NCBI GenBank assembly: GCA_965215165.1
Contig: CBDCCX010000006.1
Coordinates: 2,286,959-2,350,958, forward strand
Reading direction: 5' to 3'
From: Rhodothermales bacterium
GTDB taxonomy: Bacteria > Bacteroidota > Rhodothermia > Rhodothermales > JANQRZ01
DNA length: 64,000 nucleotides
Below the pieces are notes generated by a model. The model worked only from the letters and a program-made list of their open reading frames with translations, ran no database searches and had not been told where the DNA came from. This document shows, piece after piece, positions 1,807-49,578 of this stretch. Positions within the stretch are counted from its first letter, which is position 1. Each line of letters starts with the position of its first letter. Position numbers and translations under genes: made by a program.

Positions 1807-1898
1807 GTGACGAGCTGCGAACGTCGAATGACGAGTGGGCAGGGACCCTGCCCCTACGCCTGACGTACACAGACCGCACTGACAGACGTACTACCGCG

Positions 1899-2189
1899 AT
1901 GAAAACGAAGCTGACTCTCCGCCTGGACGACGACGTGATCGACCACGCAAAGACCTACGCCGCGCAGCGTGGCACGAGCGTCTCGGTCCTCGTCGAGAGC
2001 TACTTCCGTCTTCTCGCGTCCTCTGACCCCGGAGGCGACGGCGCTCCCGACAGGACACTGAGGAATCCAGATGGCTGGCGCGACCAGCTCAGCCCGCGCG
2101 TTCGCGAGCTTCTCGGGAGCGCACGCGGGGCAACCCCCGGCGTTACGGAAGACGATTACCGCGCCTACCTCGCAGAGAAGCACCGATGA
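1899..2189 (+). CDS. antitoxin, DUF6364/ribbon-helix-helix-like (96 aa)
   Basis: Internal ATG at 1899 of ORF 1599..2189: MKTKLTLRLDDDVIDHAKTYAAQRGTSVSVLVESYFRLL, the N-terminal signature of DUF6364-type antitoxins paired with PIN toxins. Its stop overlaps the next start (ATGA at 2186-2189). Confidence 0.75.
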   Translation: MKTKLTLRLDDDVIDHAKTYAAQRGTSVSVLVESYFRLLASSDPGGDGAPDRTLRNPDGWRDQLSPRVRELLGSARGATPGVTEDDYRAYLAEKHR

Positions 2190-2631
2190 CGGAGCGCGCC
2201 GGGACGGAGCCTGCCGCCGAGCGCCCACGCATCCTCTTCGACACGAACGTCGTCCTCGACGTACTGCTCGACCGCGAGCCGTGGGTGCGGGAGGCCGCCG
2301 CCCTCTTCGAGGCCGTCGCTGACCGTCGTCTCGTCGGCCTCCTCGCAGGCCATGCCGTGACCACGGTGTACTACGTGTTCCGTGCTGGACGCGATACCGC
2401 TGAGGCCCAGGCCGGTGTGGGCCGCCTGCTTGACCTCTTCGAGGTGGCCCCGGTGGGCCGGAGCTTGCCGGCGCACTCGCCTCCGGCTTCGCCGACTACG
2501 AGGACGGCGTAACGCACGAGGCCGCACGAGCCACGCGGTGCGACGGCATCGTGACGCGCAACGGGAGGGATTTCGCGGCAGCTTCGCTGCCGATCTACGC
2601 CCCCGCCGAACTGCTGGCTGCGCTAGCGTAA
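2186..2631 (+). pseudogene. PIN-domain (VapC-like) toxin, interrupted by a 1-nt frameshift near 2453-2460
   Basis: Frame A (2186..) gives ...RILFDTNVVLDVLLDREPW...LFEVAPVG and then runs into junk with a stop at 2512. The frame starting at 2455 gives GPELAGALASGFADYEDGVTHEAARATRCDGIVTRNGRDFAAASLPIYAPAELLAALA* (stop 2629-2631), which carries the conserved PIN C-terminal motifs (DxED, TRNxRDF). Confidence 0.75.
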
Positions 2632-2648
2632 CGCGGCGAGAGGTCACC

Positions 2649-3971
2649 TCAGATTCCACCGTCCGGCGGTCCCTCCACGTCGTCGCGCCTCACCACTTCC
2701 CCCGCGTCGTCGTCGATGAACCACGCGCCGCGAGCGTTATCCCAAAGGACGTTCCGCTCATATGTGCCGTGCCCACCTCTAATGATCGAAATGCCTTCGC
2801 CGCCATTTCTGTGAATGTGGTTATCCCGCACAACTGGGGCGCCGCCATCTGTCACCGCGAATCCGGTGAGAGCATTACCGAAAATGTCGTTGTTCTCGAA
2901 GGTTCCCCGACCCTTGTCATAGATAAAGACGCCTTCTCTCTTCCCGTCGTGGATGCGGTTGTTTCGTACAACTGGGTCAGCTCCGCACCCAATGGCAACG
3001 CAAGCTAGAACCCCAGTTGCTATGTCACAACCCTCAAGGCGAACCCGCCCCTGTACAATGTGTACGCCAAACCATTTTCCTCCGCTCTCTTGGCGGAGGG
3101 TGAGATTAGTCACCCGTCCCATCGTAGTATCAAATAGAAGGATGCTGCTCCCTTTCGAAGCGACGATGATCTCCTCGCGTGGGCCGTCCCCAATGATCTC
3201 GAGGGGTTTGTCCATCACGATCCCCTCCGCATAGTAACCGGGCCGGACGAGGAGACGAGCACCGGGAGGTACAGCCGCAATTGCTTTAGTCAGCGTCGGG
3301 TAGTCCCCTCGGTGCATGGCGTCCACGACGAACGTAGGCGGCTCGGTGCGAGGCGACGGAGTGTGTTTCTCCAACTGGGGTGACTTGACGACCGCTTGCA
3401 TCCGGTCATTTTGCCCGGCTTTCCAGCGCGGTGACGCTTGCGCGGCTCGGGACCGTGCTTTGGGCAACGCCGCCTTGACCTGCCGCGCCATGCTAGCGAG
3501 TCCCTTCCCCACCTGAGCCGAGGTGAACGGCTCGAAGCGCAGCGGACGCCAGTCGAAGTATTGGCGCTGCACCAGCTCGCGCGCCATCGCGTCGGCCTCA
3601 CGGGCAGCTTCGTCGCTGAACTCGTCGGCCTCGACGTAATAGAGTGGCAGGATCAGGTCGGCCCGGTCCATCGCCTGCTCCCGCTCCCGGAACCGCTCGA
3701 ACTCACTCCGGCACGCGCTGCTCTGGAAAAAGCCTGGAGTGATGATGGGGATGAAAAAGGTGACTGCGTCGATCCCCTCTTCGATCCGGACCTTCCAGTT
3801 GTCCCCCCACGCGATGTCGTTCCGGTCCTGGAAAATGGGAAAGGCGAGACCGGTCTGCATTCGCACCTCGCTTTCGAGGCGCTCCCGGAGCGTGGTCAGA
3901 CGCCCGTTTTCATGCTCATCGTCCAGGCGGACGTAAGACATGAAAGCAGCGGGGCTGGACGAGGGAGGCAT
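2649..3971 (-). CDS. TIR-domain protein fused to a right-handed parallel beta-helix (PbH1/CASH-type) repeat domain (440 aa)
   Basis: N-terminus: FMSYVRLDDEHENGRLTTLRERLESEVRMQTGLAFPIFQDRNDIAWGDNWKVRIEEGIDAVTFFIPIITPGFFQSSACRSEFERF (TIR_2 pattern including the xCxxE glutamate). C-terminus: repeated ...VVRNNRIHDGKREGVFIYD.../...VVRDNHIHRNGGEGISII... beta-helix turns. Hand-counted GC of lines 2761-3180 is about 47-62% against about 75% in neighbouring genes. Confidence 0.85.
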   Translation of the reverse strand: MPPSSSPAAFMSYVRLDDEHENGRLTTLRERLESEVRMQTGLAFPIFQDRNDIAWGDNWKVRIEEGIDAVTFFIPIITPGFFQSSACRSEFERFREREQAMDRADLILPLYYVEADEFSDEAAREADAMARELVQRQYFDWRPLRFEPFTSAQVGKGLASMARQVKAALPKARSRAAQASPRWKAGQNDRMQAVVKSPQLEKHTPSPRTEPPTFVVDAMHRGDYPTLTKAIAAVPPGARLLVRPGYYAEGIVMDKPLEIIGDGPREEIIVASKGSSILLFDTTMGRVTNLTLRQESGGKWFGVHIVQGRVRLEGCDIATGVLACVAIGCGADPVVRNNRIHDGKREGVFIYDKGRGTFENNDIFGNALTGFAVTDGGAPVVRDNHIHRNGGEGISIIRGGHGTYERNVLWDNARGAWFIDDDAGEVVRRDDVEGPPDGGI

Positions 3972-4026
3972 GAGGGCGGCGTAGTAGGGTACCTGAAGAA
4001 TATCGACCTTCCTCCATTACCGCATC

Positions 4027-4620
4027 CTACTTCACCCGGCGAAGGATGGACTGGAGGCGCTCGTGGTCGTCGTCGAGGAGGCGGCTGAGGGCGCGGCCGG
4101 CGGCGAGCAGCGCGGTGGTGCCTTCGTCGCCCGCGCCGTAGGCTTGGTAGAGGCGGCGCAGGAGGGCCACCAAGAGGTCGTCCGTCGGGACGCCCATCTC
4201 CGGGTTGCGGACGAGCGTGCGGAGAAAGTCGAACGGCGCGGCGAGGGCCGAGACCGTCGCGTCGCCGCAGGCGCGGACCATGTCGTGGAGGGCGGCCGGC
4301 CGTGGTGGGAGGGTCTGATGCACCGTCCCCCGCGCGTCCCGGTAGGCCAGCACCTGGGCGCGGAACGTCGTCCGGACGAGCTCCATCACCTGAGGCATCT
4401 CGCGGCGGAGCGTCTGCCGGTCCATCCCAAGCGCGACGGCCCGGCGGCCCGGCTCGACGCTCCCGGCCTCGACGTGCGCCACGACGGCGAAGAGCGTTGT
4501 TCCGTCCTCGACCTCGATCTCGACCCACGCGCCAAAGTCCGGCGGCTCAGCCTCGCGGTGCACCTCGGCCACGATGTGCCGCGTGCTGGACTCGATGACT
4601 TCGGCGATGGGGTCGGGCAT
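4027..4620 (-). CDS. hypothetical protein with HerA-type HAS-barrel-like N-terminus and no ATPase motifs (197 aa)
   Basis: Internal ATG (rc 4618-4620) of ORF 4027..4680: MPDPIAEVIESSTRHIVAEVHRE...FGAWVEIEVEDGTTLFAVVAHVEAGS resembles the small beta-barrel at the N-terminus of HerA. The rest is helical, and no Walker A (GxxGxGKS/T) is present. Lies immediately downstream of the NurA gene. Confidence 0.6.
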   Translation of the reverse strand: MPDPIAEVIESSTRHIVAEVHREAEPPDFGAWVEIEVEDGTTLFAVVAHVEAGSVEPGRRAVALGMDRQTLRREMPQVMELVRTTFRAQVLAYRDARGTVHQTLPPRPAALHDMVRACGDATVSALAAPFDFLRTLVRNPEMGVPTDDLLVALLRRLYQAYGAGDEGTTALLAAGRALSRLLDDDHERLQSILRRVK

Positions 4621-4637
4621 AGGGTTTCTGGCTTTCC

Positions 4638-4695
4638 GTTTCTGGTTTCTAGTTGGGCAGAAGCGACTGGGTGTGCCCAACTAGAAACCAGAAAC
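4638..4695. repeat. perfect 22-bp inverted repeat (hairpin, 14-nt loop) between the NurA and HAS-barrel genes
   Basis: gtttctggtttctagttgggca (4638-59) / tgcccaactagaaaccagaaac (4674-95). Adjacent 4693-4708 aactaggaacgagaaa is the reverse complement of 32726-41. Confidence 0.9.
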
Positions 4696-4712
4696 TAGGA
4701 ACGAGAAACCTA

Positions 4713-5873
4713 TTAAATCCTAGGCGCTCGCTTCGAGGCGGCTTTCTGCGAGCCGGCATAGCCCGTCAGCCCAGCGCGCTGCATCTCGCGCTCGAGGATG
4801 CGGTAGAACATGGCCTTCTCCTGGGCGCGGATCACGGCGCGCTCGTGGGCCTCGGTCAGGATGACGGGGTAGCCGCCGCCCTTCTCGGCCTGGTCGACGA
4901 CGACCGCGTGGATCATATCGAGCCAGCCCGGCTGCTCGGCTACCCACGCCGGCAGCTCGACCCGGCCGACCTCTTCGGGGAGGCGGACGTAAAAGTAGCA
5001 GATGCGGTGGTGCGGCCCGTACTCGCGCTGAATCCGCGAGCCGGACTCGAAGAGGGCCGAGCGCTCGCCAACGACTAGGGTCTGCTCGAACACGAGGCGG
5101 TCCAGCACGCCCTGCACCGAGTCCTCGTCGGGCGTCGCGTCGGTCTCGTTCCGGTGCAGACCGAGGAGGTTGACGAGCTCGGTGTTGCCGGGCATCGAGA
5201 TGTAGGAGCAGACCGGGATGCCTTCGTCGTAGAACCGCTCGAGGATGGCGAGGTAGCGGCCGATCAGCTTGTCTTCGAGCGCGCGGTGGTTCATGCCGCG
5301 CAGCATCCACCGGATCAGCGTGCCGTCGGCCATCGCCAGAATGGGGCGGGCGCTCTGGCGCTCGTGGTAGGCTGTCTCGAAGAGCCAGTGCAGCTCCTGC
5401 TCGTCGCGCAGCGCCGAGACGACCTCGGTCGAGACGTCGAAGAGGGCCTCCTCCCCCCCGTCGGCGTTCAGGTCGTCGAGGTCGCGGCGGCGGAAGCGCA
5501 GCTCCGGCTCGGCGACCATCAGCGGCGGCTCCTCGGTGCCGTAGTGGAACGCGATGCGGCTGACGTTGAGCAGGTAGCACGCCGGCTCGACGTGGCGGTC
5601 GGGGTAGATCTGCGAGCCGTCGGTGGCGACGACCGTCACGAGCGGCGGGCGCGGGCCGCCGGGGCAGCAGCCGTCGGGCCGCTCGCGGAGGCCGGCCATG
5701 AGCGTGCGCGGCCGCTCCCGCGTCACCCGGTCGCGCAGCGCCTCCCACTCGGGCGCGCAGGCGCGGAAGGCGTCGAGCGCGAGGGCGAGCTTGACGTCGC
5801 GGCGCGCGTCTTCGCCGACGCGGTAGGCGCTGAAGTCCGAGAGCTGCGGGTGGAGCCGGTGAAAATCGAGCAA
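4713..5873 (-). CDS. nurA: NurA-domain nuclease (about 386 aa; start uncertain, TTG at 5873 proposed)
   Basis: C-terminal third of ORF 4713..7724: ...LVTVVATDGSQIYPDRHVEPACYLLNVSRIAFHYG...ILAMADGTLIRW...PVCSYISMPGNTELVNLL...GYPVILTEAHERAVI. The D-G-S/D-G-T catalytic motifs and overall pattern match NurA. The remaining 5' part of the ORF is antisense junk over hemW. Confidence 0.8.
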   Translation of the reverse strand: MLDFHRLHPQLSDFSAYRVGEDARRDVKLALALDAFRACAPEWEALRDRVTRERPRTLMAGLRERPDGCCPGGPRPPLVTVVATDGSQIYPDRHVEPACYLLNVSRIAFHYGTEEPPLMVAEPELRFRRRDLDDLNADGGEEALFDVSTEVVSALRDEQELHWLFETAYHERQSARPILAMADGTLIRWMLRGMNHRALEDKLIGRYLAILERFYDEGIPVCSYISMPGNTELVNLLGLHRNETDATPDEDSVQGVLDRLVFEQTLVVGERSALFESGSRIQREYGPHHRICYFYVRLPEEVGRVELPAWVAEQPGWLDMIHAVVVDQAEKGGGYPVILTEAHERAVIRAQEKAMFYRILEREMQRAGLTGYAGSQKAASKRAPRI

Positions 5874-7160
5874 TTTTGGATTGGTGATTTTGGGTTTTGG
5901 ACTGACCTTGTCGGCTCGCCGGAAACTTACGCTCGGTGGCTCTCCTCCAAAACCCGAAGGCTCGGCGAAGCCAATCCCCCATCCGAAGTCCAAAATCGGA
6001 GATCCCCCATCGCCGCCCTCTACCTCCATATCCCGTTCTGCACGCAGCGCTGCGTCTACTGCGACTTCTACTTCACGACGACGCACCGCCTGACGCGGCC
6101 CTTCGTGGATGCGATGCTCGTGGAGATCGACGCCTACGGGCGCGAGTACGGCGGGCGCGAGGCCGTCGAGACAGTCTACGTCGGCGGGGGGACGCCGTCG
6201 CTGCTGCCGCTCGACGAGGTGGCGCTGCTCGTGCGCGAGATCGAGCGGCACTTCGACACGGCGGCCCTCGAGGAGGTGACGTTCGAGGTCAACCCCGAGG
6301 GCGCGACGCGCGACTACCTGACCGGCCTGCGCGACCTCGGCGTGACGCGGCTCTCGCTCGGCGTGCAGTCGTTCTTCGACGCCGACCTCGCGCTCATGAA
6401 CCGCGTGCACGACGCCGAGCAGGCCGTGCGGTCCGTCGAGGTCATTCAGCAGGTCGGCTTCGATTCGTACTCCGTCGATCTCATCTTCGGCGTGCCGGAG
6501 CAGCCGGCCGAGCACTGGATGGCGAACCTGGAGAAGGCCGTCGCGCTCGGCGCGCCCCACCTCTCGACCTACGGCCTGACGGTCGAGGAGCGGACGCCGC
6601 TCGCCAAGATGGTCGCACGCGGGACGGTGACGCCCGCGCCCGACGAGGCCATGCGCGAGCGGTTTCTCGACACGATGGCCTATCTCAGGGTGCGCGGCTA
6701 CGAGCACTACGAGGTGTCGAGCTTCGCGCAGCCCGGCGCGCGGAGCCGGCACAACCAGGTCTACTGGCGGCACGGCAACTACCTCGGCTTCGGCCCGAGC
6801 GCGCACTCGTTCTGGCGGCAGACCCCGTCGCTCGCCGGGCGGTGGGCCAACGTCCGCAGCCTGCCGCGCTACCAGGCCCTGCTTCAGCAGGGGCAGCGGC
6901 CCGTCGAGTCGCAGGAGCGCCTCGGGGCGGACGACCTCGCCGACGAGTACCTTCTGCTCCGCCTCCGGCTCCTCCAGGACGGCCTCGACCTCGACGTGCT
7001 GGAGGCAGACTACGGCGTGGACCTCCTCGTTGAGAAGCTCGACGCCCTCGCCGAGCTCGAGGCCGCCGGCCTCATCCACCCGATCCGCCGCAGCACCGTC
7101 CGCCTCACCGACGAAGGCGCGCTCGTCGCCGACGCCGTGACGGCGCGTCTGCTCAGCTAA
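5859..7160 (+). CDS. hemW: radical-SAM heme chaperone HemW (HemN-like); start uncertain
   Basis: ...IAALYLHIPFCTQRCVYCDFYF (CxxxCxxC radical-SAM motif), GGGTPSLL, HemN_C-like C-terminus. The only canonical in-frame start upstream of the motif is GTG 5859; conserved sequence begins at about 6003. Confidence 0.85.
   Translation: MKIEQFWIGDFGFWTDLVGSPETYARWLSSKTRRLGEANPPSEVQNRRSPIAALYLHIPFCTQRCVYCDFYFTTTHRLTRPFVDAMLVEIDAYGREYGGREAVETVYVGGGTPSLLPLDEVALLVREIERHFDTAALEEVTFEVNPEGATRDYLTGLRDLGVTRLSLGVQSFFDADLALMNRVHDAEQAVRSVEVIQQVGFDSYSVDLIFGVPEQPAEHWMANLEKAVALGAPHLSTYGLTVEERTPLAKMVARGTVTPAPDEAMRERFLDTMAYLRVRGYEHYEVSSFAQPGARSRHNQVYWRHGNYLGFGPSAHSFWRQTPSLAGRWANVRSLPRYQALLQQGQRPVESQERLGADDLADEYLLLRLRLLQDGLDLDVLEADYGVDLLVEKLDALAELEAAGLIHPIRRSTVRLTDEGALVADAVTARLLS
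5874..5995. promoter_or_regulatory. array of four TTTTGGA motifs (two per strand) in the low-GC NurA/hemW divergent region
   Basis: ttttgga at 5874-80 and 5895-5901 (+). tccaaaa at 5946-52 and 5989-95 (= TTTTGGA on the minus strand). Also ggattgg 5878-84 / ccaatcc 5971-77 inverted pair. Confidence 0.3.
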
Positions 7161-7870: not shown

Positions 7871-8407
7871 ATGACGGCCGACCTCCCGCCTCAGTTCTCC
7901 GCTCGCCTCGACGCCGATGTCTACGCGCTCCTCGCCCACTCCATCCTCACCGGCGACCGGCAACTCGTCCGCGAGCCCGACGCCGGCGACCCGCCGCTCC
8001 ACTTCCGCGCCGCCCTCGACCGCGACGCCGGCACCGTCCGCCTGCTCGACTTCCCGCCCGTCACCGACGAGGTGGGCACCGCACTCGGCCACGTCACCGC
8101 CACGGTGACGATTCAGGGCGACCCCGAGGGCGCGTTCGACAGCGAAACGGGGCACGTCCGCATCGAGGTGGAGCTGACCATCGACCCGAAGCATCTGCTG
8201 GCGCGGACCTCGCGCGTGCGGCTCGCGCTCTCGTCCGAGGCCACCATTCGCCAAGCCGAGCTCGAGGCCGATGGCGTCCCGCTGACGCTCAGCGACGGCA
8301 CGGTCACGCTCGTCGGGCAGGGCACCTTCGAGGGCGGCACGCTCGACGGCGGCACCTTCTGGCTCGCCATTGCCTGCGCCATCGACGACGTGGTGGACGA
8401 GTCGTAG
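7871..8407 (+). CDS. hypothetical protein (178 aa, no signal peptide)
   Basis: ORF-track ORF with normal composition (MTADLPPQFSARLDADVYALLAHSILTGDRQL...). No recognisable motif. Confidence 0.55.
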   Translation: MTADLPPQFSARLDADVYALLAHSILTGDRQLVREPDAGDPPLHFRAALDRDAGTVRLLDFPPVTDEVGTALGHVTATVTIQGDPEGAFDSETGHVRIEVELTIDPKHLLARTSRVRLALSSEATIRQAELEADGVPLTLSDGTVTLVGQGTFEGGTLDGGTFWLAIACAIDDVVDES

Positions 8408-9822: not shown

Positions 9823-11589
9823 CTAGCGGACGACAGTGAGGCGCTGCGTTTCGGTCCGCTCGCCGACGCGGAGGCGGACGAGGTAGACGCCCGCCGGGAC
9901 CCGGCCGAGCGGGACGCGCTCGGCGTAGCGGCCGGCCGGCTGCACCTCGTCGACGAGCGTGGCGACCGTCCGCCCGAGCGCGTCGAGCACGTCGAGTCGC
10001 ACCGGCCCCGACGCGAGCACGCCGTAGCCAATCGTCACTGTGCCGCGCGCCGGGTTCGGGAAGACCTCGAGCGCCGCGCCGACCACGCCCGGCCCGACCG
10101 GCACGCCGACCGTCGGGCGGACCGGCCGCGTCACCGGTGCGCTCGTGACGTGCTGGTAGGGTCCCGTCTGCGCCCGCGCCCAGACGGTCGCCTTGCCCGG
10201 CGGCAGCCCGGCCACCTCGACCTCGAACGGGGCCGCGAAGTCGTCGCCGACGTAGGCTCCGTTGACGACGAACGAGACGAAGCTCGCCGGCCCATCGACC
10301 TCGGCTCCGACGGTGAAGGACGCGCCGGGCGCAATCGGGCCAAGCGGGAGCGCGAGGGCAATCTCGGGCGACGTGACGCGGTCGGCGGCGACAGCGGGGT
10401 CGTACCAGAACTCGGCGGGCTTGGCGAGGTCGAAGCCCAGCCCCTCGCCCGAGGCGAGCCTGGCACGGGCACTCGCGATCCGCTCCGCAGTGCCAGGCGG
10501 GACGTAGAGCGCCCATCCCGCGTCCGGCTCGTCCCACCAGTTGATTTCCTCGTCGTAGACCCACACGAACTCGTCGGTCGTCAGGAGCGCGTGGTAGACG
10601 TTGTGCTCGAACCAGTCGAGCCGGAAGTCTTCGGAGTGGCCCCAGTTGTAGGCCGGGTCGAGGCCGAGCGGGTAGTCGGCGTAGACGGCGTAGGCGGTCT
10701 GGTGCTGGGCCTGCCACGTCGGGCGGTGGACGGGATCGAGGAGCGTCGTCGCTTGGTAGCGGACGTAGTCGTAGTTGTTGGTCACCAGCCATGACTCGTC
10801 GATGTAGTACGTGCCCTCGTTGCCGTCGATGAGCGTCAAGCCTGGCGCGGCCCCGTCGAGCATCCCGTCGAGGAAGCCGCGCATCAGCTCGTAGCCCGAC
10901 CCTTCGAGGCCGCCGTTGGCCTGGGTCTGGGCGTAGACGACGCCCATCCACCACAGCGAGAGGACCGTCATCTCGGGCTGCGCGCTCTGGAGCGCCCGGA
11001 CGTACTCGGCCCCGCGCCGCCGCGCCTGCGCCTCGACCTCCTCGAACGTCTGGTCCGGGAAGGCCCACGGGAAGTAGCGCCACGGGCTGTAGTCGGCGAA
11101 GTCGTAGTACTCGGGGTCGAAGAGGATGCCGCGCGCTCCGCTCGCCGCGACGGCTCGGGAGACGAGCCGGGCGTTCGCCGAGATCGTCGCCCACAGGTCG
11201 TCGTCGAACCAGTCGAGGGTCTCGAAGCTCTGTCCCATCTGAACGATGAAGTTGTCTTCCAGTTCGCCCCACTCGATCTGGCTCAACTCGCCGAGTCGAA
11301 CTTCCTCGGCCGTCCAGGGCCGGTCGGCAAAGGCCAGCAGGGGCTGGTCGTAGATGCCGGGGTACGAGATCGCCTCGTGCCAGCGCCCGGTCCCGAGGTG
11401 GAACGCGATGCCGTCGAAGGGCGAGCCTTGCAGCTCGGCGGGGTGGTCCAGGAGGAAGTCGACGCCCGGCGTGCTCCAGCCGAAGTGGAGGAGGGTTTTC
11501 TGGCCGGGTTGGTGCGCCGGGCTGGGCGTGCGGACTTGGGCCGACGAAGCCGATGCGGTAAGGGCGAGGACGAGCGCGAGGAGTTTCAT
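9823..11589 (-). CDS. secreted uncharacterised protein (possible glycoside-hydrolase-like barrel + Ig-like domain) with T9SS CTD (588 aa)
   Basis: Signal peptide. Conserved blocks GILFDPEYY, LIDGNEGTYY, WGHSEDFRLDWFEHNVYHALLTTDEFVWVYDEEINWW. CTD FPNPARGTVTIGY...LDVLDALGRTVATLVDE...AGVYLVRLRVGERTETQRLTVVR. Confidence 0.8.
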   Translation of the reverse strand: MKLLALVLALTASASSAQVRTPSPAHQPGQKTLLHFGWSTPGVDFLLDHPAELQGSPFDGIAFHLGTGRWHEAISYPGIYDQPLLAFADRPWTAEEVRLGELSQIEWGELEDNFIVQMGQSFETLDWFDDDLWATISANARLVSRAVAASGARGILFDPEYYDFADYSPWRYFPWAFPDQTFEEVEAQARRRGAEYVRALQSAQPEMTVLSLWWMGVVYAQTQANGGLEGSGYELMRGFLDGMLDGAAPGLTLIDGNEGTYYIDESWLVTNNYDYVRYQATTLLDPVHRPTWQAQHQTAYAVYADYPLGLDPAYNWGHSEDFRLDWFEHNVYHALLTTDEFVWVYDEEINWWDEPDAGWALYVPPGTAERIASARARLASGEGLGFDLAKPAEFWYDPAVAADRVTSPEIALALPLGPIAPGASFTVGAEVDGPASFVSFVVNGAYVGDDFAAPFEVEVAGLPPGKATVWARAQTGPYQHVTSAPVTRPVRPTVGVPVGPGVVGAALEVFPNPARGTVTIGYGVLASGPVRLDVLDALGRTVATLVDEVQPAGRYAERVPLGRVPAGVYLVRLRVGERTETQRLTVVR

Positions 11590-11607
11590 CAGAGACGGGG
11601 TGAGAGG

Positions 11608-13257
11608 TTAGCGGACGACGGTGAGGCGCTGCGTCTCGGTGTGCGGGCCGGCCTGGAGGCGGACGAGGTACACACCGGCAGGCAGCCCGGCCAGCGGTAC
11701 CTGCGCGGTGTGGACCCCGGCCGCTTGCCGCTCGTCGGCGAGCACGGCCACGGAGCGGCCGAGCACGTCGAACACGTCGAGCCGGACTGGACTGCCCTCG
11801 GGCACGGCATACGACACGGTCGCGGATGCGCGCGCCGGGTTCGGCCCGACAGTGAGCCTTAGCCCCGGTGCTTCGGGAGCGCTCGCTGTCGCCGTCGTCT
11901 TCCCGGTCGAGAAGACGTAGGCACGGCCGGCGTTGGGCGGGCTGCCCGGCAGGCTCTCCCCGAACGCGCCAACGCCGATTTCGGCGAGGCCGTCGCCGTC
12001 GAGGTCGTCGAGCGCGGCGATCCCGTAGCCGAAGTACTGCACACCATCGGGGTCCGGCACCGGCGGCTCGAGCGTGGCGAGGAGGGTGCCCGTCGAGGAG
12101 AAGAGGTACACGCGGCCGATGAGTGCCATCGGCACGGCGTCCGCGTCCTCGGCGCGGGCGCTCACGATGAGGTCGTCGAGCCCGTCGCCGTCGAGGTCGG
12201 GCACGGCCTCGACAAGCTCGCCGAAGAAGCCGAGGGGCTGCTCGTCGGGCGAGCGGAGCTCGACGGCGACCTCGCCGGTCGCGCCCGAGATCACATAGGC
12301 CCGCCCGAGATAGGTGCCCTGCGTTGGCTCGCCGTTCGCGCCGGTCGCCACGTCCGGCACGCCGTCGCCGGTCACGTCGCCGAGGCCGGCGGCCCAGCGG
12401 CCGAAGAAGCCGAGCGTGACCGCGTTGGGCGAGGCGATGGTGCGGATCGCCGAGCCGTCGGCCCCGCTGACGATGTAGAGGAGGCCGGCCAGGTCACCGG
12501 CGCTGGTGTCGCGGAACGGAGCGCCCACGACGATATCAGGAACGCCGTCTCCGTCCACATCGCCGGCGTCGTCGGAGGTGTAGCCGAAGCCGGCCTCGCG
12601 GAGGGGGCTGGGCGAAGTGATCGTCAGCACGAGCGCGTCGGTCGCGCCGTCGAAGGCGTAGAGCCGGCCAGCTAGGGCTAGCCCGTCCACCGTCTCCCCG
12701 CGCGCGCTCACGCCGACCTCGCCGACGCCGTCGCCGGTGAGGTCGCCGAGGCGTCCGAGGTCGAATCCGAACTCGCCGCCGTCGCTAGGGTTGGGTGAGG
12801 TGAACGAGGCGATCTCCTCGCCCGTGGCCCCGCTCAGGAGATAGACGCGGCCGACGTTTTCGACCCCTCCGACAGTCTCCCGCGAGGCCGGCACGTAGAA
12901 GTCCGGCGTCCCGTCGCCGTCGCGGTCCCCGGCCGGGAGGATGGCGTCGCCGAAGTAGGCGTCGGTCTCGGGGCGAGGCGAGGCGTAGGTGCGGATGAAG
13001 GCACCCGTGGCACCGCTGTAGAGGTGGACTTGGCCGGCGTCGATGACGAGGGGGCCGCCCACCTGCGTGTCCTCGTCCGGTCCCGAGACGGCGACATCGG
13101 AGACGCCGTCTCCGTCGAGGTCGCCGACGCTGGCGAGGGCGATGCCGAAGCCGCCTCCGTCGGCCTCGTCGGGCGAGGCGAAGGTGTAGAGCGGGCCAAG
13201 CTGCGCCTGGACGGTGGCGGCGAACGGGGCAAAGAGCAGGAGGAGGAGCAGGCGCAT
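11608..13257 (-). CDS. FG-GAP (integrin-alpha-like) repeat protein with T9SS CTD (549 aa)
   Basis: Signal peptide. Multiple FG...GDLDGDG.(P/S)D repeats. CTD ...GPNPARASATVSY...LDVFDVLGRSVAVL...AGVYLVRLQAGPHTETQRLTVVR. Confidence 0.85.
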   Translation of the reverse strand: MRLLLLLLFAPFAATVQAQLGPLYTFASPDEADGGGFGIALASVGDLDGDGVSDVAVSGPDEDTQVGGPLVIDAGQVHLYSGATGAFIRTYASPRPETDAYFGDAILPAGDRDGDGTPDFYVPASRETVGGVENVGRVYLLSGATGEEIASFTSPNPSDGGEFGFDLGRLGDLTGDGVGEVGVSARGETVDGLALAGRLYAFDGATDALVLTITSPSPLREAGFGYTSDDAGDVDGDGVPDIVVGAPFRDTSAGDLAGLLYIVSGADGSAIRTIASPNAVTLGFFGRWAAGLGDVTGDGVPDVATGANGEPTQGTYLGRAYVISGATGEVAVELRSPDEQPLGFFGELVEAVPDLDGDGLDDLIVSARAEDADAVPMALIGRVYLFSSTGTLLATLEPPVPDPDGVQYFGYGIAALDDLDGDGLAEIGVGAFGESLPGSPPNAGRAYVFSTGKTTATASAPEAPGLRLTVGPNPARASATVSYAVPEGSPVRLDVFDVLGRSVAVLADERQAAGVHTAQVPLAGLPAGVYLVRLQAGPHTETQRLTVVR

Positions 13258-13707
13258 CAGGATGTCCAGGATAGAGAGCAGAGAAAACAGATGGAGAGCA
13301 CGAGGCTACCGACGGAGACTATTGGCAGTCGCCGCCTAAGATCGCGAGAGATCTACGATGGTTGTCCAAGGGACGCTCGTCGTGCTCTTTTGTACTGGAA
13401 GTGCGTCCGTCGGAGCCGGATGGCAGCTCGGCGGCGTTCGGCAATCGTTACTAGTACCCGCCAGTGGGGAGTCTTACCTCCCGTCGCTGAGAACGCGCGA
13501 CCGCCGCGGTCGTCCTCACCCGCATCGCTAGCTATCTTCCGACCCGATGCCTTGGCACCTGCCTACTATGAACGATCTCGACGACCGGCTGCTGACCACG
13601 CCCGGCACGCCGACCGTCGGGCGCACGGGCCGCGTGACGGGTGTCGACGTGCCGAACTGGTATGCCTGGCTTCCGCGCTCCTGCCGAGAGGGGACCCTCC
13701 GCTCCGG

Positions 13708-15099
13708 CTAGTGGACGAGCGTGAGCCGCCCGGTCTCGACCTGGGCACCCCGCACGAGGCGGTAGACGTAGAGGCCGCTGGGAAGACCTGCCGCGTCGAA
13801 CCGCAGACGGTGCTCACCCGACCCCATCGGCCCGTCGGCGAGCTCGGCGACGGTGCGGCCTTGCACGTCGTAGACCACGAGCGCAACGTCCGACGCCTCG
13901 GCGAGGGAGAAGGTAATTTCCGTGTTCCGCGTGAAAGGGTTGGGGTAGGCCCCAGCGGGGTACGCACCGGCAGAACCCGACGACACCTGGGCACTTACTG
14001 GGTCAGCCTCCGCCCCCCAACGCTCGGCGGCAACATTCCACGTGGTGGCCGGATCGCCCACGGCTTCCGCCGCAGGTGTCACCCTGACAAAGATGGCTTC
14101 TGAGCACGCCGTCGGGGCGTTGGCCGACGGGCCGGCGCAGACGAAGTAGTCGTATTCGCCAACCGTTGCGGCGCCTGGAACCGTCTGGCTGTACGTCCGC
14201 GCAACCTGCCCCCCACTCGCTAGCCTTCCCGTTGCGACGGTGCCCTGAGCAACGAGGCGGCCTCCAAAGCCGGCGTAGAAGAACAGCCCTCCGGAGAGGG
14301 CACCCGAGGTCCCGTTGATCACCTCGTACTCGAACGAGACCGAGCCGCCCGGTTCGACCGTCGTCGGACTCTGCGCCGCGAGCGCGACCGAGAGCGGGTC
14401 GCCTGGCACGTCGCCGAACGCGATGTCGTCGGAGTCTACGAAGTCCGACTCCGACGAGCGGGCAACGAGCTTAGCGATCTTCACCGCTGGCGACCGAAAC
14501 CCGACGAAACCCTGCGTCGAGACTGTAGCTTCGCCCAGTACGGCTCCGGAGGCGTCGAGCACTTGCACGGGCGTCGGCACGTCGAAGAGGGGATCGAAGA
14601 ACCCGCCAGCGCAGTCGACGAACGGCGCGAATGAGAACACGAGGTCCTGGCTGCTTCCGCTGTTCCCAACCTCGATCGAGGAGGCCCCGCTGAAGCCCTG
14701 CCCGGAGACGAAGAGCTCGCCCAGGTTGCCGTCCACGGCGCTGACGGCAGCGGCTGTGATCCCCGGCAGGATGTCACCGGGCTGGAAGATGAGGCCGCTG
14801 CCGAAGAGCCCGAAGCGCTCACTCCTGCTGTCGAGCGGGCTGAAGATCGTCTCGGCCGTGCCGTCGGAGAGGTCTCCCTCCTCATAGCCCTCGGTTAGGA
14901 GCACGCCGCACGATGCTGCGAATGCGGGACGACTCGTGAAGACCTCCACCCCACCACGGGCGGAACCGGGACGGACCTCGGGAGCCTTCTTCTCCAGAGT
15001 CTGAGTAGAAGGCGTCAGCGGGCGGCTACTCTGAGCAACCGCTAGGGGGCTGAGAGCGACGAGGAGGAGCGCGCATAGGGCGCGGCGAAGTGTAGGCAT
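13708..15099 (-). CDS. secreted hypothetical protein with T9SS CTD (463 aa)
   Basis: Internal ATG (rc 15097-15099): MPTLRRALCALLLVALSPLAVAQ signal peptide. CTD YPNPFTRNTEITFSL...VVYDVQGRTVAEL...SGLYVYRLVRGAQVETGRLTLVH. Confidence 0.75.
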   Translation of the reverse strand: MPTLRRALCALLLVALSPLAVAQSSRPLTPSTQTLEKKAPEVRPGSARGGVEVFTSRPAFAASCGVLLTEGYEEGDLSDGTAETIFSPLDSRSERFGLFGSGLIFQPGDILPGITAAAVSAVDGNLGELFVSGQGFSGASSIEVGNSGSSQDLVFSFAPFVDCAGGFFDPLFDVPTPVQVLDASGAVLGEATVSTQGFVGFRSPAVKIAKLVARSSESDFVDSDDIAFGDVPGDPLSVALAAQSPTTVEPGGSVSFEYEVINGTSGALSGGLFFYAGFGGRLVAQGTVATGRLASGGQVARTYSQTVPGAATVGEYDYFVCAGPSANAPTACSEAIFVRVTPAAEAVGDPATTWNVAAERWGAEADPVSAQVSSGSAGAYPAGAYPNPFTRNTEITFSLAEASDVALVVYDVQGRTVAELADGPMGSGEHRLRFDAAGLPSGLYVYRLVRGAQVETGRLTLVH

Positions 15100-15261
15100 G
15101 GTTGGAGCGGTTTTGGTTAGAAGGATTGGCGAACGAGAAGGAGGCATTTCTTCGGCCCGGTCGCGTTCGTTAGCTGTCTAGGAGCGAGCGGCGAAGGAGA
15201 GGGCGGGCGCGAGAACAAGCATGAGGCTTCGCCTGGCAGCAGAGGTTGCCGGGGTCGATGG

Positions 15262-17034
15262 TCAGCGGACGACCGTGAGGCGGCGCGTCTCGGTCCGGTC
15301 GTCGGTGCGCAGGCGGACGAGGTAGACCCCGGCCGGCACGCGGCCCAGTGGCACGCGCTCGGCGTAGCTGCCGGCCGCCTGCACCTCGTCGACGAGCACC
15401 GCCACGGTCCGTCCGAGCGCGTCGAGCGCGTCGAGCCGCACTCGGCCCGCCGTGGCGAGGCCGTAGCGCACCGTCGCCGCGCTGCGCGCCGGGTTCGGGA
15501 AGACCTCGGTCGCCGCGCCGACCACGCCGGGCCCGACCGGCACGCCGACCGAGGGGCGGACAGGACGCGTCACCGGCGCCGTCGTGACGTGCTGGTACGG
15601 CCCGGTCTGCGCACGCGCCCAGACAGTCACCTTGCCCGGCGGCAGGCCCGCGACCTCGACCTCGAACGGAGCCGAGGTGTCTGCCCCGACGAACGCGCCG
15701 TTGGCGAAGACCGCCACGGCGCTGGCCGGGCCATCCACGTCTACGCCGACAGTGAACGACTGCCCCGGCTGGATCAGCCCAGGCGCAATCACGAGCGTAG
15801 CCTCGGGCGACCCGACGCGGTCAGCAGCGACGGTGGGGTCGAACCAGAATGCGCCGGGCTTGGCAAGGTCGAAGCCGAGCGCGGCGCGGGCCGCATACTT
15901 CGCGCGGGCCGAGGCGATAGCCTCTTCGAGTCCGTCGGGGATTCGCTCCTGCCACGGCGGATTGCCCGGTTCGGCCCACCAGTTGGCCAGCTCGTCGTAG
16001 ACCCACACGAACTCATCGGTCGTCAGCAGGGCGTGGTAGGTGTTGTGCTCGGCCCAGTCGCGCTGGAAGTCGGCCGGGTGGCCCCAAGCGTAAAGTCCAC
16101 TGAGCTCGAAGAGGTAGTCGGGGTACAGCGCATACCCGACCTGGTGCTCGCGCTGGAACGCGTCGCGGACCTCAGGCGGAATCACGGCGGCGGACTCGTA
16201 GCGGACGAAGTCGTAGTTGTCCGTCACCAGGCTGGTCTCGTCGAGGTAGTACGTCCCCTCGTTGCCGTCGATGAGCGTGAAGCCCGGCGCGGCGGCTTCG
16301 ATCATCCCGCCGAGGAACGAGGGCAGCAGGGCATACTGCACGGTCTCCAGCGTCCCGTCGACCTGAGCTTGGGCGTAGGCGATACCGAAGCCCCAAAGCG
16401 AGAGAAAGACGAAGGCGTCGCGCTCGGTCTGGAGGGCCTGGACGTAGGACGCCCCGCGCGCCTGCACCTGCGCCTGCACGTCGGCAAAGGATCTGCCGGG
16501 GTAGAGCTCGGCCGAGTAGACCCACGGGCTGAAGTCGCTGAAGCCGTAGAACTCGGGGTCGAACCACACGCCGCGCGCCTCGCTCAGGGCGATGCCGCGC
16601 GACAGCAGCCGAGCGTTCGAGAGCACCGTGCTCCACAGCGCGTCGTCGTACCACCCGAACCCCTCGATGCCGGTGCCCTGCTGGTAGACGAAGTTCTCGG
16701 TGTACTGCCCCCAGTCGATGTCGCCGAGGCGGTCGAACTGGAAGTCCGCCGGGTCCCACGGGATGCTGGAGAACGTGAGGAGCGGCTGCCCGACCGCGCC
16801 GAGGTCGACGGCCTCGATCTGGCGCCCGTCGCCGAAGTGGAACATCAGCCCGTCGAACGGGCGGCCCTGCCAGGACGCAGCGTAGTCCAGGAGCTGGTCG
16901 ACGCTCGGCGAAGACCAGCCGGAGTGGATCATGGTTTTGTCGCCGGCTTGGTGGGCCGGGCTCGGCGTGCGGACCTGCGCCGTAACCGCCGGAGCGAGCA
17001 AGAGGAGGACGAGGACGAACGTCGAGATGCGCAT
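15262..17034 (-). CDS. paralog of 9823..11589: secreted uncharacterised protein with T9SS CTD (590 aa)
   Basis: Collinear similarity over the full length to 9823..11589 (e.g. APFEVEVAGLPPGK.TVWARAQTGPYQHVT.APVTRPVRP.VGVPVGPGVVGAA.EVFPNPAR). Confidence 0.8.
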   Translation of the reverse strand: MRISTFVLVLLLLAPAVTAQVRTPSPAHQAGDKTMIHSGWSSPSVDQLLDYAASWQGRPFDGLMFHFGDGRQIEAVDLGAVGQPLLTFSSIPWDPADFQFDRLGDIDWGQYTENFVYQQGTGIEGFGWYDDALWSTVLSNARLLSRGIALSEARGVWFDPEFYGFSDFSPWVYSAELYPGRSFADVQAQVQARGASYVQALQTERDAFVFLSLWGFGIAYAQAQVDGTLETVQYALLPSFLGGMIEAAAPGFTLIDGNEGTYYLDETSLVTDNYDFVRYESAAVIPPEVRDAFQREHQVGYALYPDYLFELSGLYAWGHPADFQRDWAEHNTYHALLTTDEFVWVYDELANWWAEPGNPPWQERIPDGLEEAIASARAKYAARAALGFDLAKPGAFWFDPTVAADRVGSPEATLVIAPGLIQPGQSFTVGVDVDGPASAVAVFANGAFVGADTSAPFEVEVAGLPPGKVTVWARAQTGPYQHVTTAPVTRPVRPSVGVPVGPGVVGAATEVFPNPARSAATVRYGLATAGRVRLDALDALGRTVAVLVDEVQAAGSYAERVPLGRVPAGVYLVRLRTDDRTETRRLTVVR

Positions 17035-17054
17035 AGCGTCAGAGGCGAGTGGGA

Positions 17055-31255: not shown

Positions 31256-31279
31256 TCTGCCGCTCGCCGGCCACAGACT

Positions 31280-31307
31280 GTAGGGGCGACCGGCCGGTCG
31301 CCCCTAC
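31280..31307. repeat. REP-like 28-nt perfect palindrome
   Basis: gtaggggcgaccggccggtcgcccctac between sufT and sufS. Confidence 0.85.
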
Positions 31308-31324
31308 GCGTTTCCTCCTGCCCG

Positions 31325-32642: not shown

Positions 32643-32725
32643 GCGTTAGGCCTCGGCGTGCGTCCGTTCCTCCAGCCCGGCTTGAACAGGCGCTCTCGGC
32701 GGCGGCATGGACTCTGTTCTGATGA

Positions 32726-32790
32726 TTTCTCGTTCCTAGTTCAGCAGTCCCGGTCGCTCTCGATCAACGAGAAACGTCAAACGAGAAACC
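32726..32790 (+). repeat. low-GC hairpin-forming leader element (family shared with 4638-4711, 44044-44118)
   Basis: tttctcgttcctagtt (32726-41) is the exact reverse complement of 4693-4708. cccggtcgct core (32749-58). aacgagaaa x2 (32766-74, 32780-88) can pair with tttctcgtt. Ends 7 nt before ATG 32797. Confidence 0.6.
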
Positions 32791-34144: not shown

Positions 34145-34164
34145 AGTCACATTATAGTCACATT
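34143..34164. repeat. perfect tandem duplication of an 11-mer at the argS / pheA-like junction
   Basis: atagtcacatt x2 (34143-53, 34154-64). On the coding (minus) strand it reads AATGTGACTAT x2. Confidence 0.85.
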
Positions 34165-44042: not shown

Positions 44043-44043
44043 G

Positions 44044-44118
44044 GCGAGCGACGAGCTCCGAACAGCGAGCGACGAGTGGTACCTTCGGGCACCCACTTGT
44101 CGTTCCTAGCCCGTCGCT
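44044..44118 (+). repeat. hairpin-forming leader element immediately upstream of pyrD (same family as 4638-4711 / 32726-32790)
   Basis: gcgagcgacgag direct repeat (44044-55, 44065-76). cgagcgacg / cgtcgctcg and gagtgg / ccactt inverted arms. tcgttcctag (44100-09) + cccgtcgct (44110-18), ending 1 nt before GTG 44120. Confidence 0.55.
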
Positions 44119-44119
44119 C

Positions 44120-45199
44120 GTGTACCGCCTTCTTCGGCCTCTTCTCTTCCGGCTCGATGCCGAGGCGGCGCACGGGGCGGCGGTGCGCGCGGCGCACCTC
44201 GGGCAGCGCGCGCCGACGCTGCTCCGGCCGTTTCGGTTCGCGGACCCGGCGCTCGGACAGCGGCTCTGGGGATGCGAGTTCGCCAACCCCGTCGGGCTCG
44301 CGGCGGGGTTCGACAAGAACGCGGCGCTCGTGCGGGCGTGGGCCGCGCTCGGGTTCGGGTTCGCCGAGGTCGGCTCGGTGACGGCGCGGCCGAGCCCAGG
44401 CAACCCGACGCCGCGCGCGTTCCGCCTGGCCGAGGACGGCGCGCTCGTCAACCGGATGGGGCTGAACAACGACGGGGCTGAGGCCGTCGCGGCGCGGCTC
44501 CGAACTGCGGCGCGCGCGATCCCGCTCGGCATCAACCTCGCCAAGACCCACGACCCGGCCGTCCTCGGCGACGCGGCGACGGAAGATTTTCTCCAGTCGT
44601 TCCGCTGGCTCGCGCCGCAGGCGGACTACGTCGCGCTCAACGTCTCGTGCCCCAACACCGCCGAAGGCAAGACTTTTGAGGAGCCGGCGGCCTTCGATGG
44701 CTTGCTCGCTGCCGTGATGCGCGAGCGCACGGCGCTCCACCTCAGCGTTCCCGTCCTCGTCAAACTCTCCCCGCCCGCCACGCCGCGCTTCGACCCTGCC
44801 CCCGTCGACGAGCTGATCGACCTGGCGCTCGGCCACGGCGTCGCGGGCTTCGTGGCGACCAACACGGCGTCCGACCGCACGGGCCTTCGCGCGGACGCGG
44901 CGCAGCTCGAGGCCATCGGGCGCGGCGGTCTCAGCGGCCGGCCCCTCGAGGCGCGCGCGACCGCCCTCGTCCGCCACCTCTATCGCCGGACCGAGGCCCC
45001 GATCATCGGCGTCGGCGGCGTGGACTCGGCCGAGGCTGCGTACCGGAAGATCCGGGCCGGCGCGTCGCTGGTCGAGGTCTACACCGGACTGGTCTATCAG
45101 GGGCCGGGGCTGGTGCGACGGATCAACCGGGGGCTGGTGCGGCTCCTGGAACGCGACGGCTTCGCCTCGGTCGGCGAGGCCGTGGGGACGGCGGCGTGA
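44120..45199 (+). CDS. pyrD: dihydroorotate dehydrogenase (quinone), class 2
   Basis: GTG 44120: (M)YRLLRPLLFRLDAEAAH...NPVGLAAGFDKN...GFAEVGSVT...NRMGLNNDG...NVSCPNT...IGVGGV...YTGLVYQGPGLV. Confidence 0.9.
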   Translation: MYRLLRPLLFRLDAEAAHGAAVRAAHLGQRAPTLLRPFRFADPALGQRLWGCEFANPVGLAAGFDKNAALVRAWAALGFGFAEVGSVTARPSPGNPTPRAFRLAEDGALVNRMGLNNDGAEAVAARLRTAARAIPLGINLAKTHDPAVLGDAATEDFLQSFRWLAPQADYVALNVSCPNTAEGKTFEEPAAFDGLLAAVMRERTALHLSVPVLVKLSPPATPRFDPAPVDELIDLALGHGVAGFVATNTASDRTGLRADAAQLEAIGRGGLSGRPLEARATALVRHLYRRTEAPIIGVGGVDSAEAAYRKIRAGASLVEVYTGLVYQGPGLVRRINRGLVRLLERDGFASVGEAVGTAA

Positions 45200-45327
45200 C
45201 CTCGTCGCCCCTACGGGCGTCGGCAAAAACGGGATGCCATTCCCGGCCAGGGCGACCACATGGGAGCGCCCCTACGGGTCGCAACGATCTCGGTACCTTT
45301 CCCACCTTGCCACCTTCCCTCTGAACC

Positions 45328-49386: not shown

Positions 49387-49434
49387 GGGGACGGCCTCAG
49401 TGAGCGCTGAAGGCATAGTTTGTTAGGGTTGCTT

Positions 49435-49466
49435 TATTATAAGACATCGCTATTATAAGACATCGC
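49435..49466. repeat. perfect 16-bp tandem duplication in an AT-rich divergent intergenic region
   Basis: tattataagacatcgc x2 (49435-50, 49451-66). Confidence 0.85.
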
Positions 49467-49578
49467 TGCCTCCTCTCCAAGAGGCTCAGCGGCTTCGGCG
49501 GGTGATTACGGTCTGATTTGGAGCGGCCAGGTTTTTGTGTTTTATTAGAGACGGCTCCCTCCTCAAACACGCACCGCT

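Follow-up and report, generated by a model that had tools for sequence, protein, structure and literature searches.

Tandem-heptad palindromes between genes of a Rhodothermales bacterium belong to a widespread REP-like family with a possible role in translational coupling

In the 64,000-nt stretch of a Rhodothermales contig analysed here (the window), three intergenic spacers had been proposed to carry one dispersed family of hairpin elements directly upstream of start codons: element A between a NurA-domain gene and a HAS-barrel gene, element B between sufS and a VOC gene, and element C between a Tricorn/PD40 gene and pyrD (Table 1). We find that A and B belong to a family of palindromes with tandem-heptad arms that is widespread in intergenic gaps and behaves like a dispersed repeat of the repetitive extragenic palindrome (REP) type. 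The observation stands and reaches further than the initial annotation held; the function of the elements is unproven.

The list of open reading frames (ORFs) was misleading upstream of element A. GC content by codon position instead placed the end of the true minus-strand frame at the TAA of 4713-4715, which makes A an intercistronic element occupying the whole 92-nt gap. On the coding strand, A consists of (GTTTCTN)4 and GTTGGGCA, a 14-nt loop, and TGCCCAAC followed by (NAGAAAC)4. Spelled out from 5′ to 3′, the TAA stop, a T and AG lead into the units GTTTCTC, GTTCCTA, GTTTCTG and GTTTCTA, then GTTGGGCA, the loop CACCCAGTCGCTTC, the units TGCCCAA, CTAGAAA, CCAGAAA, CGGAAAG and CCAGAAA, and finally CCCT before the ATG. 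The two arms (4623-4659 and 4674-4710, 37 nt each) are 84% complementary. The perfect stem previously proposed for A is indeed there, with 22 uninterrupted pairs, as is the motif CCCAGTCGCT in its loop. Folded as RNA, A reached −50.2 kcal/mol (z = −8.7 against shuffles), with basal pairs predicted to take in the last base of the TAA stop as well as the A and T of the ATG. As the element is palindromic, RNA of either strand would read 5′-(GUUUCUN)n, loop, (NAGAAAC)n-3′. The GC content at A is 0.49 compared with ~0.70 for the window, and a heptad-array scanner returned A as its sole match in the window and none in 20 shuffles. Partial matches earlier listed near 7753 and 40616 were single units at chance level. 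Several other identities were considered for A and dropped: scans for a sigma-70 promoter or an intrinsic terminator gave no sites, a sigma-54 promoter in the loop had a GG-to-GC spacing of 11 rather than 10, an extracytoplasmic-function-type −35/−10 pair had its elements in the wrong order, and the RYYYAAC/GTTRRRY cores of an attC site were missing. The terminator scan likewise found no U-tract or terminator-like site at A or B; the 3′ arm of A runs into CCCTATG and that of B into CAAGACTATG.

Element B is a shorter relative of A. The 16-mer TTTCTCGTTCCTAGTT, on which the family was originally founded, occurs exactly at A (4693-4708, minus strand) and at B (32726-32741, plus strand), and shuffles do not reproduce its recurrence: at up to three mismatches the window holds four matches, a number reached in 0 of 100 shuffles (mean 0.15). 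Two more copies, with two mismatches, lie within A's own arms. By blastn, A and B align over 72 nt with 69% identity (E = 3e-5). Behind the 16-mer, B continues with CAGCAGT, CCCGGTCGCT (32749-32758), CTCGATCAAC, CGAGAAAC, GTCAAAC and GAGAAAC, and both the duplicated AACGAGAAA and the CCCGGTCGCT ascribed to it are present. With the two inner heptad pairs of A removed, the two elements are collinear, each presenting the 16-mer, 7 nt, CCCNGTCGCT, 6 nt, CAAC and heptads. That they adjoin start codons also stands: the HAS-barrel ATG (4620) and the VOC ATG (32797) are both backed by identical proteins, the latter by a 100%-identical protein of the same length (P0192, 143 aa). In the relatives compared, the sufS|VOC junction carried no heptads. 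A conserved −24/−12-like sequence, TGGCACGGCCTCTGC, lies upstream of the VOC gene there (L072, ~9940-9960; L073, ~9945-9965), and the window has CGGCATGGACTCTGT, in which the −12 GC is changed to GT. Forced alignment of the B core to the relatives' 5′ untranslated region (5′-UTR) gave 47% identity, which was not significant.

Element C, in turn, is a genuine hairpin (−52.2 kcal/mol, z = −5.2) but not a member of this sequence family. It has 66% GC and no significant blastn similarity to A or B, and CCCGTCGCT, earlier read as a shared mark, is a common 9-mer in the window (5 matches versus 3.1 expected). Its arms have a period of 7/21 nt, with units GCGAGCGACGAG and GTCGTTC/GTCGCTC; C shares the architectural class of A and B, not their sequence family. 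In the predicted fold, basal pairs enclose the stop and start codons, and the last stop base pairs with bases of the start, as in A. The GTG at 44120 sits inside the stem, and the database pyrD of this genome (P0213, 338 aa) begins 21 codons later; longer relatives and a conserved N-terminus (YRLLRPLLFRLDAE, window 44120-44185) support this GTG as the probable start. Hairpins were also found at the Tricorn/PD40|pyrD junction in L196 (2858-2960) and L197 (2927-3020), with heptad arms of RGACRGN/TGTCCYC type (GGACRGA/CGTCTTC). The apex GGTAYCTTCGGGC is common to all three lineages at this junction and the arms differ, which argues that the hairpin and its loop were retained while the arms were replaced. 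A candidate motif upstream of the relatives' Tricorn gene, TCGTTCCTGTCGC, was set aside as ordinary local conservation, the window having TCGACCTGTCGCC there.

The prediction of further copies, pursued in other genomes, was borne out by metagenomes. A scan for the 16-mer followed by AGAAAC 20-50 nt later retrieved 20 loci, which share the 16-mer and the full architecture. Every one of the 20 comprises 2-6 GTTTCTN/GTTCCTN units, a loop of ~10-45 nt and 2-8 NAGAAAC units; across the family, element length ranges from 62 to 121 nt, with 2-8 tandem heptads per arm. The loops are unrelated between non-orthologous loci. Rare unit variants are sometimes mirrored across the arms (GTTTGTS with SACAAAC in L051, L052 and L064), and the 3′ arm often exceeds the 5′ arm in length (L060, L065). 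Strain pairs (L051/L052 and L055/L057) differ by whole-heptad indels together with uncompensated substitutions, and this variation by whole heptads points to slipped-strand or template-switch events. All 20 carrier loci come from soil metagenomes. Of six flanking proteins looked up, those from four loci (L051, L057, L060, L064) fall into clusters with named members in the Acidobacteriota (chiefly Blastocatellia or Chloracidobacterium), whereas the window's own proteins have homologues with names from the Bacteroidota (Rhodothermales, Rubricoccaceae or Rubrivirga).

The gaps occupied by the family belong to housekeeping operons and include trpC|trpF, tmk|holB, M28 peptidase|fabI, korB|CBS protein and nrnA|small protein, and a single contig (L057) bears elements in both rplX|rplE and rplE|rpsN. 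Nearly all unique elements (17/18) abut or contain the stop codon of a long ORF; the upstream stop is often a heptad's TAG, giving protein ends of the form ..VSRS*. In 10 of the 18, an ATG-initiated long ORF begins 3-24 nt past the A-rich arm. Approximately 10-11 gaps are co-directional, three are convergent and none is divergent. If 20-25% of gaps are divergent, the absence of such gaps among 13 resolved contexts has a probability of ~0.02-0.05. Rfam returned no match in the window at the gathering threshold, and at E-value thresholds only sub-threshold generic microRNA-hairpin matches; the literal sequences, looked up in a library of papers, matched only primers from unrelated work. A two-part motif, TCGTTCCTAG..CCCnGTCGCT, was abandoned after a scan of a genome collection, which excludes the window's own genome, produced 27 scattered single matches in unrelated taxa, read as chance. 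As a separate observation, a chance match of this kind is surrounded by a conserved ~60-nt stretch (ACCCCAAGAG..TCGTTCCTAGG..CCCGGTCGCTAC) shared by unrelated metagenome-assembled genomes (MAGs; L004 1530-1600, L007 3740-3810, L014 1980-2050), which no Rfam family fits.

Phage sequences carry the same unit in direct form. Arrays of (GTTTCTN)3 or longer are present in more than 120 viral contigs, and an inverted partner accompanied 0 of the 124 direct arrays examined there. In the AGAAAC orientation, a long ORF starts within 30 nt of 46 of 104 non-redundant arrays, versus 15 of 104 in the opposite orientation (Fisher P = 3e-6). With ATG starts only, the counts are 34/104 versus 2/104 for the control orientation (Fisher P = 1e-9), mostly 0-6 nt away, so that the enrichment before start codons expected from the initial annotation holds in the phage contigs in which it was tested. 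The closest 33 ATG cases, with arrays 0-15 nt upstream of the ATG, represent 15 unrelated protein families. As a negative control, the 16-mer alone had 16 matches in viral contigs, none with array extension. One viral contig (L084, 62% GC) harbors at least three GTTTCTG-type hairpins within 4 kb (4760-4835, 5943-6006 and 7970-8043), all in the same orientation; both elements with flanking ORFs examined sit between co-directional ORFs. These hairpins agree in their arms, down to the asymmetric units GTTTCAC and CTTAAAC, but not in their loops, so that arms appear to be copied or made uniform among the loci of a genome. The resemblance of A to B would have the same cause.

Comparison of orthologous junctions revealed rapid turnover. 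At NurA|HAS-barrel, the two genes of L028 (85% protein identity) overlap in ATGA, and the NurA C-terminus reads ..SKRAPRI* as in the window; L029 has an unrelated 446-nt low-GC insert; and L075 (89% identity) has a 73-nt hairpin (9927-10007) with arms (GTCGGGN)3 and (NCCCGAC)2-3, whose 3′ array covers the ATG and corresponds to the CCCGAC seen where the window's gene starts. At sufT|sufS, L073 (8501-8582) carries (GTGATTGG)5...(CCAATCAN)4, whose terminal units include the TGA stop and the ATG start, and L072 a G-rich/C-rich hairpin. The rplX|rplE and rplE|rpsN gaps of the L067 ribosomal-protein cluster are unlike those of L057, though the L5 proteins share one 90% cluster. The family appears to live inside transcription units; it comes and goes between close relatives, and its arms appear to be copied between loci. 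Beyond these two gaps, most intercistronic gaps of the S10-spc-alpha cluster in L067 (1-20540; Blastocatellia GCA_016716305.1) are 50-110 nt long and hairpin-forming, and several of the arms hold short tandem repeats of their own (TGAGTTGG, GTCGCAG, TTCACGAT).

Table 1 Elements, flanking genes and related features of the window
Feature	Position	Strand	Description and basis
Element A	4621..4712	-	Complete NurA|HAS-barrel intercistronic spacer, 92 nt; sequence, inverted repeat, fold
5′ arm of A (mRNA sense)	4674..4710	-	Four GTTTCTN-type heptads, then GTTGGGCA; includes the 16-mer (4693-4708)
Loop of A	4660..4673	-	CACCCAGTCGCTTC; contains CCCAGTCGCT, found at equal offset in B
3′ arm of A	4623..4659	-	TGCCCAA through CCAGAAA, then CC; ATG 3 nt further on
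NurA-domain gene	4713..5870 (start approximate)	-	Upstream of A; TAA 4713-4715; codon-position GC, translation, orthologues; Pfam NurA E = 7.7e-31
HAS-barrel gene	4027..4620	-	Downstream of A; ATG 4618-4620; Pfam HAS-barrel; 100%-identical 197-aa protein P0001 of equal length
Element B	32724..32789	+	Short member of A's family; ends 7 nt before VOC ATG 32797; sequence, 16-mer, alignment to A
Sigma-54-like context of B	32703..32717	+	CGGCATGGACTCTGT, aligning with relatives' TGGCACGGCCTCTGC; consensus match only
Element C	44043..44122	+	Gap-filling hairpin, Tricorn/PD40 gene (TGA 44040-44042) to pyrD (GTG 44120)
Locus D	1807..1860	+	Post-stop spacer, 5′ part like C's 5′ arm (GACGAGCTxCGAAC..GACGAGTGG); blastn 34 nt, 82%, E = 2e-4

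Other features of the window lie near these elements or are repetitive in their own right. On the minus strand, the NurA gene, a 197-aa HAS-barrel-only protein and a TIR_2 and beta-helix protein follow each other (2649-5870), and GC falls to 0.64 in the interval 2001-4000. In relatives (L028), a TIR fragment, PIN/MazE modules or other genes are found at this place; the row of NurA, HAS-barrel and TIR_2 genes possibly forms a defence islet of small size. The window also has a second REP-like family, this one GTAG-tagged, represented by GC-rich hairpins built on GTAGGGGCGACC / GGTCGCCCCTAC (31256-31324, 45200-45327 and ~1845-1860), one GTAGGGGCGACC-type member of which occupies the window's sufT|sufS gap. 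The region 58155-58488 (84% GC) contains GC-rich tandem repeats of 24-nt period, in at least nine copies with 60-77% identity. Low-GC direct repeats in two promoter-type gaps (34119-34190 and 49396-49483; GTCATAGTCACATT/ATAGTCACATT, and two copies of TATTATAAGACATCGC) are possible operator sites. Four to five paralogous genes at 9825-17356 and 47141-47303 have a conserved 3′ region in common (repeat families D1, D3, D6 and D8); they may encode secreted proteins with the Por_Secre_tail domain of type IX secretion, which is present in the relatives' loci.

What might such an element do? We tentatively favor translational coupling, at something short of an even chance: as part of the operon mRNA, the element would join stop to start and mask an A-rich leader. 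The operon transcript would include the element, which would fold as a long stem whose basal pairs bring the upstream stop beside the start of the downstream gene and whose pyrimidine-rich 5′ arm masks the A-rich leader, (NAGAAAC)n. A ribosome ending at a stop beside or inside the 5′ arm would melt the base of the stem and thereby free both leader and start. Translation of the downstream gene would so be kept coupled across a 60-120-nt spacer, as in the ancestral ATGA overlap; in convergent gaps, the hairpin could serve only as a 3′-end structure. The sequences themselves show the anatomy, distribution, turnover and context of the elements and the association of arrays with ATGs; we infer, rather than observe, transcription through the element, folding in vivo, the coupling itself and the mechanism of copying. 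A broader generalisation, which we consider unlikely as a whole, would make A and B part of a class of self-renewing intercistronic hairpins of Shine-Dalgarno-poor bacteria, the arms of which are continually rebuilt from heptads, through slippage and through templating from arm to arm or from locus to locus, as the hairpin and its stop-to-start position persist. Here, (NAGAAAC)n would be a Shine-Dalgarno-independent ribosome-loading signal of Bacteroidota, Acidobacteriota and many phages, gated by the (GUUUCUN)n arm so that downstream translation depends on upstream termination. Pairing of AGAAA with the 3′ tail of 16S rRNA (UUUCU) is a candidate lead in this respect; the window is without an rRNA gene.

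A number of observations weigh against coupling. Coupling cannot operate between convergent genes, and three elements are so placed. The constant orientation noted at the outset holds in the window, where A, B and C are all sense; across the family, however, the strand of the 16-mer is random with respect to transcription (6 sense and 5 antisense loci). Fold energies were better for the sense strand at 6 loci and for the antisense strand at 5, a comparison ascertained on the 16-mer and hence biased; for both A and B, the antisense strand folds better than the sense strand. Stems are near-wholly Watson-Crick, with 0-3 G-U per ~30 pairs, and neither this purity nor the better antisense folds favor selection on RNA over palindromy at the DNA level, which they suit at least as well. 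Among the hairpins claimed for the three elements, those of A (z = −8.7) and C (z = −5.2) stand, but the fold of B (−20.3 kcal/mol, z = −0.26) is no better than shuffles. Moreover, transcription from the putative sigma-54-like site may begin inside B's 5′ arm. The link of phage arrays to ATGs could have arisen without function, by slippage starting at A-rich initiation regions, and start and stop may adjoin the element simply because it is the whole spacer. Finally, neither a transposase nor a mechanism of copying came to light in the sequences covered. A is flanked by TA...TA, but no direct duplication borders B or the metagenome copies, whose flanks extend the palindrome as A...T. Neutral or DNA-level accounts agree equally well with the Watson-Crick-only stems, the lack of a fixed orientation, the elements in convergent gaps and the weak fold of B.

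Chief among these accounts is a selfish or neutral palindrome of the REP type or of the kind of a miniature inverted-repeat transposable element (MITE), or else a self-expanding palindromic microsatellite, that gathers where it is least harmful, in stop-to-start and stop-to-stop gaps. We regard it as unlikely. The empty orthologous site in L028, the fast turnover of units at one junction, the whole-heptad indels between strains, random orientation and almost exclusively Watson-Crick pairs would all follow from it. REPs likewise favor unidirectional and convergent gaps (PMC3733652), and in many genomes no long repeats are commoner than heptanucleotide simple sequence repeats, which have been put down to slippage (Mrazek 2007, as cited in PMC4679880). 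Less easily accommodated is the Tricorn|pyrD hairpin, which persists in three lineages despite replacement of its arms and looks like a structure being maintained, as are the toleration of elements within ribosomal-protein and other essential operons and the recurrence of the GTTTCTN unit in two phyla and, as direct arrays, beside phage ATGs; neither a target-site duplication nor a GTAG tag was found. Another, rather improbable account is that of an mRNA-stability or processing element, in which the stem would act as an RNase III site or a barrier to 3′ exonucleases that uncouples the abundance of the cistrons, as for REPs, bacterial interspersed mosaic elements (BIMEs) and enterobacterial repetitive intergenic consensus (ERIC) sequences, the heptads having no translational role. 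Stems of 20-28 uninterrupted pairs and the placement right after stops, convergent gaps included, are in line with this, and REPs are held to function in the RNA, past coding regions (PMC3733652). It leaves unexplained, however, the partnerless direct (NAGAAAC)n arrays beside phage ATGs and the 3′ arms that are longer than the 5′ arms (L060, L065), and the scan detected no U-tract or terminator-like site.

Alternatively, the arrays could be read at the DNA level as binding sites, each heptad being the site of a cooperative dimer and the inverted arrays coming together in a looped or nucleoprotein complex. Runs of 7-bp heptads are bound by ribbon-helix-helix proteins such as omega of pSM19035. 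Within one genome, the arms are kept and the loops vary, and the symmetry is Watson-Crick only and independent of orientation; the architecture also matches that of the class 1-3 sites of Geobacter metallireducens (PMC2700814). Yet the elements lie inside operons rather than in promoter-bearing divergent gaps, and many cognate proteins would be needed, given several unit types per genome (A/B, C, the hairpin at 31256) and different units at one junction in sister lineages. No candidate binding protein was identified, and we consider such arrays quite improbable. As for a shared, sequence-specific 5′-UTR riboregulator, or one global-regulator operator, serving HAS-barrel, VOC and pyrD, the window itself offers some encouragement: all three elements are sense and directly upstream of starts, and the 16-mer and loop motif are common to A and B. 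But orthologous junctions bear hairpins of wholly different units and the elements are not conserved before orthologous genes, C is unlike A or B, family orientation is random, there is no Rfam match, and the genes downstream of family members are unrelated housekeeping genes. This possibility is very improbable and appears already largely refuted by the comparative data. Of the three readings that the initial annotation offered, the REP/MITE-like one comes nearest, given the gap types, the empty orthologous site and the arms shared within a genome, whereas a riboregulator or an operator fits poorly.

If translational coupling is correct, the elements would provide largely Shine-Dalgarno-less bacteria with a way to couple neighbouring genes over long spacers, and a simple heptamer array would recruit ribosomes in two phyla and in phages. 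Their evolution would be unusual, with structure and loop kept and the arms renewed in the manner of microsatellites. Even as tolerated junk, the elements give upstream genes their stop codons and C-terminal residues (..VSRS*) and obscure true start codons (pyrD), with annotation errors and assembly breaks in MAGs as a consequence.

Among known systems, MITEs such as Correia/CREE and ERIC have inverted arms, an overall size of 60-130 bp and presence/absence polymorphism at orthologous sites, and are co-transcribed with flanking genes. The empty orthologous site (the ATGA of L028) and several similar copies per genome (collinear A and B; three in L084) are reminiscent of these, but the arms described here vary by whole units and the loops are unrelated between copies; no target-site duplication is apparent, and a parent insertion sequence is not known. 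Mycobacterial interspersed repetitive units (MIRUs) sit between the cistrons of operons, overlap the adjoining stop and start codons with their ends and are held to preserve translational coupling; unlike heptad palindromes, they are direct tandem units of 40-100 bp that encode small ORFs. REPs, BIMEs and REPINs are GTAG- or CGTC-tagged palindromes, transcribed and species-specific, with several families per genome (Di Nocera et al. 2013, PMC3733652). Like A and B, of which the 64-kb window holds these two copies, REPs are short dispersed palindromes in unidirectional or convergent gaps, mostly just past coding regions. In contrast to REPs, neither A nor any of the 18 family members has a terminal GTAG/CGTC, their ends reading A followed by GTTTCT...AGAAAC and T, and B is also untagged; their arms consist of tandem heptads in variable number rather than forming a single imperfect palindrome of 20-40 bp.

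Closest in architecture are the paired tandem-repeat 'global regulator binding sites' of Geobacter metallireducens, which fall into class 1 (GTTGCTYN, four units), class 2 (TCTCCGTS[Y], three units) and class 3 (the heptanucleotide MTYCTGA, five units; Aklujkar et al. 2009, PMC2700814). Each class numbers 8-24 pairs and a genome has several classes, one pair lying between proB and proA; the sites were guessed to bind IHF/HU and are given only as annotation features in supplementary figures (PMC2700814). They share with A the arrays of 3-5 tandem units of 7-9 nt on opposite strands with a variable spacer, but only their class 3 core, TYCT, resembles the GTTTCTN unit, and the account draws no link to stop or start codons, turnover or other phyla. 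Closest in position are the direct repeats of the heptamer TAACTGA, known with a patchy distribution from marine Beggiatoaceae, cyanobacteria and some Bacteroidetes, for which a role in translation initiation was proposed and one indirect-repeat case reported (MacGregor 2015, PMC4679880). There, too, 2-6 or more tandem heptamers stand a few nt upstream of starts, those of ribosomal-protein operons included, in Shine-Dalgarno-poor leaders. In keeping with these and with the cyanobacterial short tandemly repeated repetitive (STRR) heptamers, each arm of A has four heptads, and the array ends 3 nt (A) or 7 nt (B) before the ATG. Being direct repeats only, however, TAACTGA and STRR arrays form no hairpin, and they differ in unit from the NAGAAAC / GTTTCTN of A and B; the phage arrays of direct (NAGAAAC)n come nearer to TAACTGA arrays than A does. 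The family thus links the Geobacter paired repeats and the TAACTGA arrays, isolated observations in the literature, as one testable phenomenon: A and B combine a dispersed intergenic palindrome with start-proximal heptamer repeats, a kind of element that is widespread and was barely described before.

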